Assembly (NCBI GenBank): GCA_934216505.1
Contig: CAKQBW010000001.1
Location: 20,553 to 84,552 of the forward strand
Origin: an uncultured Alphaproteobacteria bacterium
Lineage (GTDB): Bacteria; Pseudomonadota; Alphaproteobacteria; CAAHEQ01; UBA3637
Length of the DNA: 64,000 bases
Direction of reading: 5' to 3'
The position numbers and the translations under genes were made by a program. This document shows positions 18,198 through 59,024 of this stretch, one piece after another; positions within the stretch are counted from its first letter, which is position 1, and every line of letters begins with the position of its first letter. The notes below the pieces were generated by a model. That model did no database searches. It was not told the origin of the DNA and saw nothing but the letters and a program-made list of their open reading frames with translations.

Positions 18198-18944
18198 ATG
18201 TTTTATCGGGCGGAAAACGGCAGGTCATTGTTGGAAATTATTGCGGTAATGGCGATTATGGGAGTTTTTACGGTGGCCTCTATTGCGGCTTTTCAGGCGG
18301 GGCTAAACTCTGTTCGGGCGAAATATATTATTGAGCAAGTTCAATTAAGGGTGGAAGAAGTGGTGGCCAACTCAGAATTATCAAAGGGTCATAAGAAAAC
18401 CGTCTATACCCCTGAATATGTCAATAAATCTGGGCAAGATAAATATGGCTATTCTTTTAAAACGGTTAATGCGACACAAGGAGATAAGACAATGGCCTTT
18501 ATGTTATTGGGAAATGCAGCTCGATCTCCTACGGTTCAGGTGGAAATTTCGGGTAAAATTTCTTCGGGAATTTGCACCAGTTTAAAGGGAAAAATGGCTA
18601 TCTTGGGGAATGTTGAAAAAGCCACCACTGATAAGGGGGGAGATATTTTAAAAGAACCTTGTCCCGAAGATATTCAAAAAATAACAGTATATGTGAAGAG
18701 AAAAATTAAAAAAATTGTTCGTTCCGGTACAACAGGTCTTTCGGGCCAGACAGGGAGCAGTACCTCTCGTTCATCTTCAGGAATAACAGGCGTGACCACT
18801 CGTGTTGCGGCGCAAAAAAAGTGCAATATTGAAAATGCTCTTTCATGTGATCCATTGGTCTGTGATGAATCAAACGGTTATTATGAATTTGAAGACGAAA
18901 GGGGAAAATGTCAACCTTGTCCTGCTGGAAGTTATTGTGAATAA
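18198..18944 (+). CDS. prepilin-type (type IV pilin-like) protein with C-terminal Cys-rich CPAGSYC motif
   Basis: N-terminus ...ENG|RSLLEIIAVMAIMGVFTVASIAAF has Gly-1, Glu+5 and a hydrophobic helix. C-terminus is ...CDPLVCDESNGYYEFEDERGKCQPCPAGSYCE. Good RBS. Confidence 0.6.
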   Translation: MFYRAENGRSLLEIIAVMAIMGVFTVASIAAFQAGLNSVRAKYIIEQVQLRVEEVVANSELSKGHKKTVYTPEYVNKSGQDKYGYSFKTVNATQGDKTMAFMLLGNAARSPTVQVEISGKISSGICTSLKGKMAILGNVEKATTDKGGDILKEPCPEDIQKITVYVKRKIKKIVRSGTTGLSGQTGSSTSRSSSGITGVTTRVAAQKKCNIENALSCDPLVCDESNGYYEFEDERGKCQPCPAGSYCE

Positions 18945-19020
18945 AAAAAGTGCTTGACATTTGTTTGTATATATGCTTTTATGAAAATGGTTTTATTTTT
19001 TAACAACAAAAAAAGGAGAC

Positions 19021-19629
19021 TTGATGAAAATTTCAAAATTATGTTTGACTTTGGCCGTGGCGGGTGTCATCGGTTTGGCTTCAATGGACGCTTTTGCGGC
19101 ACGGGTGAGAAAACCCTGTCCTGCGGGAACTTACTCTAAAGCGGGGGCAACCAGTTTAGCGGGGTGTATTAAGTGTAGTACTTTGGGAATCAATAAGTAT
19201 TCTGCTTCAGAAGGGGCCTCTACCTGTTCTACCTGTCAAGGGGGAAAAATCGCTAATGCTGAGGGAACAGGTTGTATTGATACCTGTAAAAAAGGATATT
19301 TGCTTGTCAATGGTAAATGTATTGCTTGTACAGCAGAAAATAAAAAAGCAGGATTTATTTGTGATGGGACAACAGAATTTACCTGTAAAAAAGGGTATTA
19401 TAAAGCGGGAACGACTTGTAAAACATGTGTGAAAAATGCTGAGTCATGCACCAGTGGGACAGATTTTGTCTGCAAACAAGGGTTCTTTAAACGGGGAACA
19501 GCCTGCGTTGCTTGTCCGACAGGGGCAGGGGTTGAATCTTGTACGCCCGAAGGATTCACATGTAATGTTGGTTTCTATGAAAACAAGGTGACATGTACAA
19601 AATGTGAAGCAGGATATTATTGCGAATAA
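19021..19629 (+). CDS. secreted Cys-rich repeat protein (ephrin-receptor-like / GCC2_GCC3-type CxxCPAGTY modules)
   Basis: Signal peptide MMKISKLCLTLAVAGVIGLASMDAFA. Repeated C-x2-C...G(Y/F)(Y/F) modules: PCPAGTYSKAGATSLAGCIKC, CKKGYYKAGTTCKTC, CKQGFFKRGTACVAC, CTKCEAGYYCE. Confidence 0.6.
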   Translation: MMKISKLCLTLAVAGVIGLASMDAFAARVRKPCPAGTYSKAGATSLAGCIKCSTLGINKYSASEGASTCSTCQGGKIANAEGTGCIDTCKKGYLLVNGKCIACTAENKKAGFICDGTTEFTCKKGYYKAGTTCKTCVKNAESCTSGTDFVCKQGFFKRGTACVACPTGAGVESCTPEGFTCNVGFYENKVTCTKCEAGYYCE

Positions 19630-19652
19630 TCTGTTTTTTTTAAAAGAAGAGT

Positions 19653-19678
19653 CGGCCGAGTGTCGGCTCTTTTTTATA
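19653..19678 (+). terminator. weak rho-independent terminator after the Cys-rich gene
   Basis: GCCGA-gtg-TCGGC stem followed by TCTTTTTT. Confidence 0.45.
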
Positions 19679-19699
19679 TAAAAAACTTGTAAAAAAGGC

Positions 19700-19728
19700 T
19701 TGACAAGGATACTAAAATAGGCTATAAT
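19700..19728 (+). promoter_or_regulatory. consensus sigma70 promoter (TTGACA-17-TATAAT) of the str/S10/spc/alpha superoperon
   Basis: Perfect hexamers with 17-nt spacer; a ~180-nt leader precedes rpsL. Confidence 0.7.
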
Positions 19729-19911
19729 AACACCACTTGTTTGATACTTTCGGGGGTCTTTTGGAAAAGACTTTTTAGAAAAATCAGGAAGTTATATTTA
19801 ATGAAATCAAAGACTTGTTTTGGTTTCTTAAATGAAAATGAGCGCTTTCGTTTGCCTGAAATAGGTCGATGAAAGATTTTTTTGTGAATAGGTAGAAAAG
19901 GAAGAAAAAAG

Positions 19912-20283
19912 ATGCCTACAATTAACCAGCTTATCCGTAAATCTCGGAAGGCAGTGGAAAAGCGGAACAAAGTGCCCGCTTTAAAGGCGTGCCCACAAAA
20001 ACGTGGTGTTTGCACGCGTGTGTATACAACGACCCCTAAAAAACCAAACTCGGCTTTGCGTAAGGTGGCTCGTGTTCGTTTAACAAATGGTTTTGAAGTA
20101 ACCTCATATATTCCTGGTGAAGGACATAATTTACAGGAACACTCTGTTGTGATGATTCGTGGCGGACGTGTAAAGGACTTGCCTGGTGTTCGTTACCATA
20201 TTATTCGTGGTACCCTTGATACTCAAGGTGTTGCTAATCGTAAACAAGCGCGCTCGTTGTACGGCGCCAAACGCCCTAAATAA
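19912..20283 (+). CDS. rpsL: 30S ribosomal protein S12
   Basis: [13 protein letters not shown]...[23 protein letters not shown]12 signature. Confidence 0.95.
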
Positions 20284-20295
20284 GGAGAAGATACT

Positions 20296-20766
20296 ATGTC
20301 ACGTAGACATGCTGCAGAAAAGCGCGAAGTGGTGGCCGATGCGAAATATAATGACATCGTGGTTGCCAAGTTTATGAATTCTTTGATGTTGGCTGGCAAA
20401 AAGTCAGTCGCTGAAGCCATTTTATACGGCGCTATGGCTGAATTAGAAGAAAAGATTAAAAAGCCTGCTTTGGAAATTTTTAAGACGGCTTTGGACAATG
20501 TAAAACCTCAATTGGAAGTGCGTTCTCGTCGTGTGGGTGGGGCCACTTATCAAGTTCCTACAGAAGTTCGGGCTGATCGCCAACAGGCATTGGCTATTCG
20601 TTGGATTATTGGGGCTGCTCGTGGTCGGAGCGAAAAAACGATGGAAGAACGGTTGTTTAACGAATTGCAAGATGCTTATAACAACCGTGGAACTGCGATT
20701 CGCAAACGCGAAGATACGCATCGTATGGCCGAAGCCAATAAGGCTTTTGCTCACTTTAAATGGTAA
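20296..20766 (+). CDS. rpsG: 30S ribosomal protein S7
   Basis: [19 protein letters not shown]...; 156 aa; follows rpsL. Confidence 0.95.
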
Positions 20767-57697: not shown

Positions 57698-57732
57698 AAA
57701 AGGGGCTGATTGAAGGGCTGTTAAAAAATGGG

Positions 57733-57761
57733 TTGAAAAATTTTTTAATCTGTGGTATAAT
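57733..57761 (+). promoter_or_regulatory. promoter TTGAAA-17-TATAAT upstream of rpmI-rplT
   Basis: Read directly. Confidence 0.6.
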
Positions 57762-57837
57762 AGCCCTCGTTTGCCAAAGGGGCTGGAAAAATTTGGCTGC
57801 CCTCAGGCGTTGATAAACATTTAAAAAAGGATAAAAA

Positions 57838-58041
57838 ATGCCAAAATTAAAAACAAAAAGTTGCGTTAAAAAACGCTGCAAACTCACAAAGAACAATAAA
57901 GTAAAGGTTGGACATGTCAATAAGCGTCACTTGTTGATGAATCATCCTCATAAGCGTAATCGTCAAGCCCGTCGGACTCATGCCGCTAGCTCAACGGTGA
58001 GCAAGATTTTAAAGTTCTTTATCCATGGGAAAGGAGTATAA
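57838..58041 (+). CDS. rpmI: 50S ribosomal protein L35
   Basis: MPKLKTKS...KRHLLMNHPHKRNRQARR; 67 aa; preceded by a TTGAAA-17-TATAAT promoter. Confidence 0.88.
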   Translation: MPKLKTKSCVKKRCKLTKNNKVKVGHVNKRHLLMNHPHKRNRQARRTHAASSTVSKILKFFIHGKGV

Positions 58042-58044
58042 GCT

Positions 58045-58404
58045 ATGGCAAGAGTAAAGCGTGGCGTTACCGCCCATGTTAAGCATAAGAAAATTTTAAA
58101 GTTGGCCAAAGGGTATCGTGGTCGTAACTCTAAAGTTTATACGATTGCAAAAGAAAAAGTTGAAAAAGGATTACAATATGCCTATCGTGACCGTCGGGCC
58201 AAAAAGACCGATATGCGTCAATTGTGGATTGCCCGTATTAATGCGGCTGTTCGCCAAAATGGCTTGATCTATTCTGTCTTTATGAATGGATTGAAAAAGG
58301 CAGGGATTGTTATGGACCGTAAAATGTTGGCCAAAGTTGCTGTGGAAGATGCTTCCGCTTTTGCAAAGTTGGTTGAAGCGGCCAAAACTTCTTTGAAAAA
58401 ATAA
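58045..58404 (+). CDS. rplT: 50S ribosomal protein L20
   Basis: [28 protein letters not shown]20 N-terminus; followed by a rho-independent terminator. Confidence 0.95.
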
Positions 58405-58423
58405 TTCTTTTTCAAAAAAATAA

Positions 58424-58452
58424 AACAGCCCCGTTAAAAGGGCTGTTTTTTT
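58424..58452 (+). terminator. rho-independent terminator after rplT
   Basis: AACAGCCC-cgttaaaa-GGGCTGTT followed by TTTTT. Confidence 0.8.
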
Positions 58453-58514
58453 ATTGACAAAATCTTAAAAATAGTTTAATTATAAAACATGATTTTATTA
58501 AAAAAGGGGGAAAA

Positions 58515-59024
58515 ATGAAAACTCAATCAGGCCGTTCTATGTTGGAAATCATTGGCGTTTTGGCGATTATCAGTGTCTTGTCTGTGGGTGGGTTGTATGC
58601 CTATAAGACCGCCATAAACAAACGAAAAGTGAATGATATTTTAAATATGATTCAAACGCAATCTGTGATGATTTCAACGGCGATGCAAAATAAAGACTTT
58701 AAAAATGCCGATGAAATGAATGCCTTTTTATCAGACTTTAACACGAAAGTAGCGGGCTATAATATCACTTTTGAATTTCCAAAGGACGCCGAGTTTAATC
58801 CAAAAAATTATGTCAGCAAGATTACAGATGAAAGCAATCAGCCCATTCAAGGGAGGATGTGTCGTGAGTTGATGCGTTCTATGATGGAACAAAGAATGAT
58901 TTCTGATATCGGAGTGACCGTTTTGGAAGACAGGGATGAAGATGGGGTGGCCGAAAAATTCAACTTGCGTTTGAATGGATTGTCTATCAACTTAGACGCT
59001 GTTTGTGGGACAGATTCTTTGTAA
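58515..59024 (+). CDS. prepilin-type (type IV pilin-like) protein, 169 aa, with C-terminal Cys pair
   Basis: N-terminus MKTQSG|RSMLEIIGVLAIISVLSVGGLYAYKTAINKRKVNDIL; two Cys (GRMCRELM ... DAVCGTDSL) like a pilin D-region disulfide. Confidence 0.6.
   Translation: MKTQSGRSMLEIIGVLAIISVLSVGGLYAYKTAINKRKVNDILNMIQTQSVMISTAMQNKDFKNADEMNAFLSDFNTKVAGYNITFEFPKDAEFNPKNYVSKITDESNQPIQGRMCRELMRSMMEQRMISDIGVTVLEDRDEDGVAEKFNLRLNGLSINLDAVCGTDSL

Follow-up and report, generated by a model that had tools for sequence, protein, structure and literature searches.

The 64-kb window analyzed here, that is, the whole stretch of 64,000 nt taken from contig CAKQBW010000001.1 of an uncultured alphaproteobacterium, contains three dispersed genes that encode proteins of 248, 379 and 169 amino acids (aa) with a shared, unusual prepilin-like N-terminus. 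It is well supported, by the predicted fold and by homology, that all three proteins are subunits of the type IV pilin superfamily, more specifically of the type IVb (bundlin/PilS-like) class, because the positions that matter in pilins are conserved and because relatives of the three genes are linked to type IVb assembly machinery. Beyond this assignment, we estimate a probability of roughly 65% that the proteins function as subunits of a type IVb pilus, which would be processed after a Gly residue, assembled by the pilus machine and used to display varied, in part adhesive, cargo. The family to which the three proteins belong is very large, is specific to a lineage of uncultured gut Alphaproteobacteria and has not been described previously.

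Shared N-terminus and predicted fold of three window proteins

The three open reading frames (ORFs) are located on the + strand at 18198..18944 (248 aa), 56558..57697 (379 aa) and 58515..59024 (169 aa), and each has its own ribosome-binding site. In all three proteins, a hydrophilic leader of 6–8 residues that ends in Gly is followed by RS(M/L)(L/V)E and a stretch of about 20 hydrophobic residues. The 248-aa protein starts with the leader MFYRAENG (predicted cleavage G8/R9, Glu at +5), followed by RSLLEIIAVMAIMGVF; the 379-aa protein with MKKTKESG (G8/R9), followed by RSMVEMLGVLAIIGVL; and the 169-aa protein with MKTQSG (G6/R7), followed by RSMLEIIGVLAIISVL. A six-frame regular-expression search with the N-terminal motif yielded exactly these three matches in the 64 kb, compared with a mean of 0.03 in 100 shuffled sequences. 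Pairwise similarity among the three proteins is limited to the first 55–105 residues. Thus, the sequence-only reading of this DNA was accurate as to the presence, the positions and the common N-terminus of the three ORFs. It also described their surroundings correctly: the first gene lies between uppS (Prenyltransf) and the S12 gene at 19912, the second between tRNA-Glu (55985-56059) and the L35 gene, and the third between the L20 and S4 genes.

The conservation of the motif was counted in ORFs that had been retrieved by their hydrophobic core alone, in two sets of 118 and 112 ORFs. The Gly at −1 is present in 117/118 and 112/112 of them (229/230 together), and both the Arg at +1 and the Glu at +5 are present in every ORF of the two sets (118/118 and 112/112, 230/230 together). 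The Arg at +1, which had already been pointed out from the three window proteins, is therefore real and invariant across the family. The Ser at +2 and the Met at +3 are almost invariant, and the minimum leader length is mostly 6–11 residues.

These features correspond to the definitions in the pilin literature. A class III signal peptide has a hydrophilic leader ending in Gly or Ala, and in type IV pilins the cleavage site is followed by about 20–25 mainly hydrophobic residues, usually with Glu at position 5; the positions that are stressed are −1, for cleavage, and +5, for assembly (PMC10191384, PMC4471445). All three window proteins have such a leader, such a hydrophobic stretch and Glu5. 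In addition, the predicted structures have the “lollipop” fold of pilins, in which an N-terminal helix of about 50 residues is packed on a beta-sheet head, and the hydrophobic segment forms the first half of this one continuous helix within the folded protein.

Type IVb assembly genes in relatives and the missing machine

A scan of metagenome contigs revealed two species in which pilins with the motif G↓RSM(V/I)E (the arrow denotes the predicted cleavage site) are encoded directly downstream of an assembly cluster. On contigs L141 and L165, the gene order is TcpQ-like lipoprotein, secretin, PAP_PilO, coiled-coil protein, T2SSE ATPase, T2SSF platform, bundlin-like pilin and G↓R pilin, the latter with the motif G↓RSMVE, and the Pfam scores are 53 bits for the secretin (PF00263), 58 for PAP_PilO, 219 for T2SSE and 76 for T2SSF. 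On contig L162, PilO, one further gene, the ATPase and the platform are followed by four tandem G↓RSMIE pilins. The machinery proteins of these clusters are similar to E. coli BfpB, BfpD and BfpE (E values of 1e-57 to 1e-97) and to those of a type IVb cluster on a Bosea plasmid (1e-59 to 1e-104), and the order of genes (TcpQ-like, secretin, PilO, x, ATPase, platform, pilin) resembles that of the BFP and Bosea clusters as well.

The window proteins match the machinery-linked pilins with E values of 5e-20 (40% over 126 aa), 3e-16 and 2e-9, the last being that of the 248-aa protein against an L162 pilin (BLASTP). The claim that the three genes are prepilin-like is thus backed both by the fold prediction and by homology to pilins that adjoin a type IV pilus machine. 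One of these relatives (L165:7223-7831) passes the PilS model (PF08805) with 63 bits versus a cut-off of 22 and the Bundlin model (PF05307) with 56 bits versus 22.3. Because just such machinery-linked relatives pass the two models, whereas the window proteins do not, the latter are members of the PilS/Bundlin class by transitive homology only.

The linked machinery also bears on another kind of protein with a prepilin-like N-terminus, namely pseudopilins of type II secretion, which form a periplasmic piston and not a surface pilus. Three members of the family were named “type II secretion system protein” by the NCBI pipeline, and weak matches to GspH and XpsH are found. However, these matches reach 11.9 bits versus 80 for GspH and 13.1 bits versus 160 for XpsH, the clusters contain type IVb components (PAP_PilO, TcpQ-like protein, BfpB-like secretin) but not GspC, GspL or GspM, and the pilins next to the machinery score above the PilS and Bundlin cut-offs. 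Therefore, pseudopilins appear very improbable.

Two further genes of the cluster contigs should be mentioned. The platform gene and the G↓R pilin gene of L165 are separated by a gene (6601-7149) for a 182-aa bundlin-like protein (PF05307, 37.6 bits), which also occurs in L138, L141, L144, L167 and L169. Its N-terminus is hydrophobic but does not contain the G↓RS..E motif, and the protein may be a cap pilin or a minor pilin that lacks Glu5. Directly past the four tandem pilin genes of L162, a XerC/D-type tyrosine recombinase is encoded on the − strand (8259-9233). It may be a housekeeping gene; in R64, the recombinase gene of the shufflon sits at the equivalent place.

In the low-GC relatives of the window organism, an orphan T2SSE ATPase gene was found that is divergent from rimP-nusA-infB (L027 16443-18326, L089 10001-11233 and L091 10001-11464). 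Across these relatives the protein is 64–88% identical, and in L027 and L091 its gene lies within 10 kb of family pilins. The ATPase is most similar to the retraction ATPase BfpF and to the second ATPase of the Bosea cluster (E values of 1e-38 to 1e-48), and its best NCBIfam match is to the PilT/PilU family, far below the cut-off. Its N-terminal extension is variable and rich in repeats (PEPEF/APPPVAPQ repeats in L027).

Based on these relatives and on the sequence features, the following route can be proposed. The proteins would be inserted into the membrane via the Sec pathway, with the short basic leader in the cytoplasm and the hydrophobic alpha1N helix as an anchor in the inner membrane. 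A prepilin peptidase that accepts or even requires Arg at +1 would cut after the invariant Gly and leave Arg as residue 1. A type IVb machine, consisting of a BfpD-like ATPase, a BfpE-like platform, PilO, a TcpQ-like protein and a BfpB-like secretin, would then extract the subunits and polymerize them via their near-identical alpha1N helices, with Glu5 neutralizing the N-terminus of the neighboring subunit. Such a machine does adjoin family members in the relatives described above; in the genome of the window organism it would be encoded elsewhere, the genes presumably being dispersed in this lineage.

Several observations weigh against the proposal that the window proteins are subunits of a type IVb pilus. 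Searches with Pfam, NCBIfam and phmmer, the latter with E. coli, Bosea and metagenomic queries, detected no homologue of PilB, PilC, PilD, Tad components, secretin or PilO in the 64-kb window, so that the earlier statement that no assembly genes are nearby holds. An extension ATPase, a platform, a secretin and PilO were found neither in the window nor in the surroundings (about 1.3 Mb) of 79 family loci that belong to named metagenome-assembled genomes (MAGs); this absence is uninformative because only about 0.6 matches are expected per component for a randomly placed single-copy gene in a sample of that size, in which one ATPase match was found. The main gap is the peptidase. About 1.9 Mb of related DNA, the surroundings of the type IVb clusters included, yielded no A24 prepilin peptidase and, apart from one spurious motif match, neither the A24 motif G-x-G-D-x-K nor canonical G↓F/M-type pilins. 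Furthermore, we know of no precedent for Arg at +1. The contigs with the type IVb clusters have a GC content of 48–52%, compared with 40% for the window organism, so that the relation between the two is indirect, and the named pilins closest to the cluster-linked ones come from MAGs of higher-GC gut Alphaproteobacteria. The housekeeping genes that flank the clusters gave no informative match in the related DNA compared.

The remaining points of this kind concern the pilin signatures. The three window proteins do match the N_methyl model (PF07963) and TIGR02532, as had been suggested as a check, but every score is below the threshold: 12.5–14.6 bits versus 21.2 for N_methyl (14.6 bits for the 248-aa protein) and 9.7–11.7 bits versus 16.3 for TIGR02532. 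No match of the three proteins to PilS or Bundlin was obtained at E ≤ 1, and when the family alignment was used as a profile against the PDB sequences, no pilin was matched significantly; weak matches to C-type lectins were restricted to the cargo columns. Such scores would be expected if the N-termini were ordinary Sec signal peptides or signal anchors that resemble pilins by chance. Against this stand the hydrophobic segment, which is predicted as the first half of a continuous helix of about 50 residues in a folded protein, the invariance of Gly at −1 and Glu at +5, and the homology to pilins that are linked to machinery and score above the PilS and Bundlin cut-offs. A chance resemblance can practically be dismissed.

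A more serious alternative is exaptation. The low-GC lineage may have lost or reduced its type IVb machine, and the N-terminus would now serve only as an inner-membrane anchor or export tag for diverse periplasmic or surface cargo that is not polymerized. In line with this view, no machinery was seen in the window or near the 79 loci of named MAGs, the only ATPase seen in the low-GC lineage is of the retraction type, the genes are scattered singly among housekeeping genes, and their copy number is far above the normal need of one pilus. On the other hand, Gly at −1, Arg at +1, Glu at +5 and the first 25 or so residues are nearly absolutely conserved across paralogs with heads that have diverged to 40–50% identity. 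This exceeds the needs of a membrane anchor and fits filament packing and recognition by a peptidase. A retraction ATPase that is kept at 64–88% identity makes little sense without a fiber, and the sampled DNA, with its roughly 0.6 expected matches, is too small for a conclusion from absence. Taken together, we regard exaptation as unlikely, and we prefer the assembly of the proteins into a type IVb pilus.

A conserved carrier with variable cargo

In the assembled pilus, the three window proteins would have different roles. The 169-aa protein, which is a pilin without an extra module, would be a plain structural or core pilin, whereas disulfide-rich C-terminal modules would be presented as adhesins, on the fiber or at its tip, mainly by the 379-aa protein and less so by the 248-aa protein. 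The 379-aa protein has the layout of a modular pilin. Its residues 1 to about 145 form the pilin module, which contains Cys113 and Cys133 and closes with a TITYNNDL strand that matches the C-terminus of short family pilins, and residues from about 157 to 379 form a Cys-rich C-terminal module with 36 Cys in 223 residues. Within this module, a tandem repeat of 111 bp (37 aa, six Cys per unit) is encoded at 57289..57649 (+ strand; 3.3 copies, 84% matches, score 533). The 248-aa protein consists of a pilin-like domain (Cys126, Cys155), a Ser/Thr/Gly-rich linker and a tail of 40 residues with 6 Cys. Therefore, of the two large Cys-rich C-terminal domains that had been claimed, that of the 379-aa protein exists, while the 248-aa protein has just this small tail. 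For the cargo modules of the window proteins, Pfam gave no assignment.

The 248-aa protein is part of a cluster of 15 members at 90% identity that was found across several gut samples. The motif of its tail, C..C.AG.YCE, is also the repeat unit of a 202-aa secreted protein encoded next to it (19021..19629, + strand). That protein has a Sec-type signal, 23 Cys and CxxC...G(Y/F)Y repeats, shows weak matches to Giardia VSP and to the TNFR-like part of ELAPOR, and is kept as a neighbor of the 248-aa pilin in L093. It may be a partner of the 248-aa pilin or a source of its cargo, and its membership in the system is uncertain.

The short pilin-like protein for which a terminal disulfide had been proposed, the 169-aa protein, contains exactly two Cys, at positions 116 and 164, which could form such a bond; Cys116 is invariant in the family alignment. 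The gene is conserved and single-copy, and its position between rplT and rpsD is kept in orthologs down to 51% identity. A terminator-like hairpin after rplT (58422-58449, + strand) and a promoter-like site (58454-58483, + strand), both of which are consensus matches only, precede the gene, and thus it appears to be a separate transcription unit between rplT and rpsD. In L001, a family member of 941 aa starts 7 bp past the stop codon of the 169-aa ortholog. A vWA domain suspected by eye in this protein (VDKSGSL) was not confirmed by Pfam and is not claimed.

The size of the family was assessed with the N-terminal module of the 379-aa protein as the query. At E ≤ 0.1, 6037 of the 90% clusters were related to this module. 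When representatives at 50% identity were searched, the count was 5031 at E ≤ 1e-3 and 1467 at the stricter limit of E ≤ 1e-10. In species-representative genomes, at least 599 occurrences of the core motif were counted. Nearly all motif-bearing records carry the name “Alphaproteobacteria bacterium” and represent MAGs from the guts of humans, rabbits, goats, deer, sheep and buffalo, and these gut MAG relatives agree with the notion of a host-associated alphaproteobacterium. Two loci, L009 and L074, come from MAGs labeled Acidaminococcaceae and Candidatus Gastranaerophilales, which are probably binning errors. The GC content of the family loci ranges from 33 to 57%. Single loci of 20 kb carry several family copies, up to five, and short family pilins are often arranged in tandem, for example four in L011, where pilins of about 120 aa are encoded at 16001-18179. 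The literature searched for this clade (RF32, CAG-239) together with pili or secretion contained nothing relevant.

A location next to ribosomal-protein operons, which had been suspected as a common trait of the three window genes, turned out to be a coincidence of this region. Among 113 related genes, no more than 6 are found at a distance of up to 3 kb from homologs of the translation genes of the window, and about 3% of the locus bases are that close.

The proteins vary widely in length. In the first set of loci, the part past the Gly is shorter than 180 aa in 51 proteins and at least 300 aa in another 51, with a maximum of 1633 aa. The C-terminal modules that Pfam identified in other members include EB, EGF/teneurin, Ephrin-receptor-like, F5/8 type C, PT-HINT/Hint and Colicin D, and the EGF, Ephrin-receptor-like and EB modules pass or reach the Pfam thresholds. 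The idea of eukaryote-like adhesive tips can thus be upheld in part: the two larger window proteins resemble pilin carriers of Cys-rich cargo, and the eukaryote-like modules are seen in other members. In P0049 and P0097, among others, the PT-HINT/Hint and Colicin-D-like C-termini represent toxin-type cargo on a pilin carrier; a literature search for pilin-borne polymorphic toxins found nothing.

According to the proposed route, each genome would encode many paralogs with the same carrier and different cargo. A more far-reaching and tentative version, which we consider possible but doubtful, is that one type IVb machine serves as a general display and delivery platform, with dozens of interchangeable carrier pilins per genome that share the code G↓RSMVEMLGVLAIIGVLS, the Arg at +1 being read by a dedicated peptidase, and that carry varied cargo. 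If this were true, the carriers would bear eukaryote-like EGF, Ephrin and lectin adhesion modules and even HINT-toxin domains. The family would then be the gene-family counterpart of the R64 PilV shufflon and a possible pilus-borne route for contact-dependent toxins.

A comparison with known systems shows which features are shared and which are new. The bundlin/PilS type IVb pilins (E. coli BfpA, PilS of IncI R64 and S. Typhi PilS) likewise have a leader that ends in Gly, Glu at +5, and a fold (predicted for the family) with a long alpha1 helix, a beta-sheet head and a disulfide. Of their machines (BfpB, BfpD, BfpE, BfpF; PilN-O-P-Q-R), a BfpF-like ATPase is kept in the low-GC relatives. However, residue +1 is Leu in the E. 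coli bundlin-like protein and the Bosea PilV, whereas it is always Arg in this family. The family also differs from the bundlin/PilS class in its short leaders of 6–11 residues, its singly dispersed genes, the many copies per genome and the lack of a peptidase gene in the DNA searched.

Modular pilins are an established concept, with S. sanguinis PilB and PilC, CofB of enterotoxigenic E. coli (ETEC) and V. cholerae TcpB as examples, and a survey by IPR012902 listed about 1,200 of them (PMC8179133). The 379-aa protein shares with them the N-terminal pilin module, the linker and the C-terminal module, which presumably is displayed on the fiber for adhesion, and other family members carry EGF, lectin-like, F5/8-C and HINT-toxin modules. 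In contrast to the known modular pilins, the cargo in the window is a Cys-rich repeat without a Pfam model, and the family mostly escapes the signature by which the survey was made (N_methyl matched 1 of 81 members at E ≤ 0.01), although it alone has thousands of members.

In the tip adhesin PilV of R64, C-terminal variants are generated by DNA inversion of the shufflon. PilV and the family thus have in common that the N-terminal pilin part is constant whereas the C-terminal part differs, and NCBI annotates a PilV in the Bosea cluster, which is homologous to the clusters of the relatives. However, the diversity in the family takes the form of many separate paralogous genes and not of DNA inversion; no shufflon or Rci was identified. 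Lineage-specific expansion and scattered genes are also known from the DUF1559-type families of Planctomycetes, Verrucomicrobia and Lentisphaerae, which have pilin-like N-termini and diverse C-termini. These families have the canonical motif G↓F(T/S)LIE and pass the N_methyl models, whereas the motif of the present family, which belongs to the type IVb class, is G↓RSMVE.

Thus, type IVb pilins and modular pilins as such are known; the private G↓R motif, the extreme expansion in copy number and the poor visibility to signatures are new. Because the standard signatures (N_methyl/IPR012902) mostly miss a family of about 5,000 representatives at 50% identity, surveys of pilins, above all of modular pilins, undercount the members from gut microbiomes. 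The invariant Arg at mature position 1 bears on the specificity of prepilin peptidases and on the interaction of Glu5 with the N-terminus in the fiber core. The variety of cargo on one conserved carrier suggests ways in which these poorly known, uncultured Alphaproteobacteria of the gut may adhere to host or microbial cells or attack them, and the family provides a handle for locating the dispersed pilus genes of this lineage.

The ComF-like gene, the putative secretin and other genes of the window

The sequence-only reading had taken the pilins together with a comF gene and a compact secretin as a hint of a pilus or DNA-uptake-like apparatus. Its prepilin-like genes, the Arg at +1, the absence of assembly genes and the host association have stood, while the ribosomal adjacency, the secretin and the DNA uptake have not. 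The gene at 54471-55196 encodes a protein of the ComF/GntX family (E value of 2e-43; Pfam DZR_2 and Pribosyltran above threshold), and the 169-aa protein has a weak match to ComGC (E value of 0.068), as might be expected if the pilins were subunits of a competence pilus that works with this ComF-like protein. The ComF-like protein, however, scores at the family level only and below the curated cut-offs (126 bits versus 233.55 for TIGR00201, 148 versus 304 for PRK11595), and no tie between it and the pilins was found. The ComF family is widespread irrespective of competence. In addition, ComEC, ComEA and DprA were not seen, the pilins belong to type IVb and not to the Com type or type IVa, and the cargo of the family is adhesin-like or toxin-like and not DNA-binding. 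A role in DNA uptake is therefore very unlikely.

For the ORF regarded as a compact secretin (8255-9409, 384 aa), no Pfam match at E ≤ 0.5 and no NCBIfam match was obtained, and phmmer searches of the window with E. coli GspD, BfpB, the Bosea secretin and the L141 secretin gave no match. The ORF encodes a protein with a signal peptide and belongs to a block of four consecutive ORFs (175, 408, 384 and 239 aa; 6499-10130) without family matches that is kept in related strains. Upstream of the ORF, VirB6/TrbL-like membrane proteins are encoded in an array, which comprises two polytopic proteins of 496 and 997 aa, encoded at 943-5438, each with a CWPC motif and without a Pfam match. In near-identical strains (L095, L096 2508-9943), the CWPC proteins follow a 622-aa TrbL/VirB6 protein (PF04610) after yajC-secD-secF, the TrbL gene thus being situated just upstream of the region that corresponds to the window. 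Together with the TrbL gene, the genes at 943-5438 form a tandem array of VirB6-like paralogs, an arrangement that is reminiscent of the rvh type IV secretion system of Rickettsiales.

Three other observations concern the window and its vicinity. At 12108-13559, a 483-aa trimeric autotransporter adhesin is encoded, recognizable by its C-terminal membrane anchor of the YadA type; it is a second, independent type of adhesin in the window. On the − strand at 59820-61018, a 190-aa protein with a match to YscJ_FliF_C (27.8 bits) overlaps by one base with a 208-aa protein. The pair is kept beside rpsD in L001-L005, the L001 homolog of the 190-aa protein being 297 aa long, and the 190-aa protein may be a remnant or derivative of a ring protein of a flagellum or a type III secretion system. 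Downstream of the window, NuoE/F-like proteins and an [FeFe]-hydrogenase are encoded in a near-identical strain (L002 6337-10284), which suggests an anaerobic lifestyle of this alphaproteobacterium.

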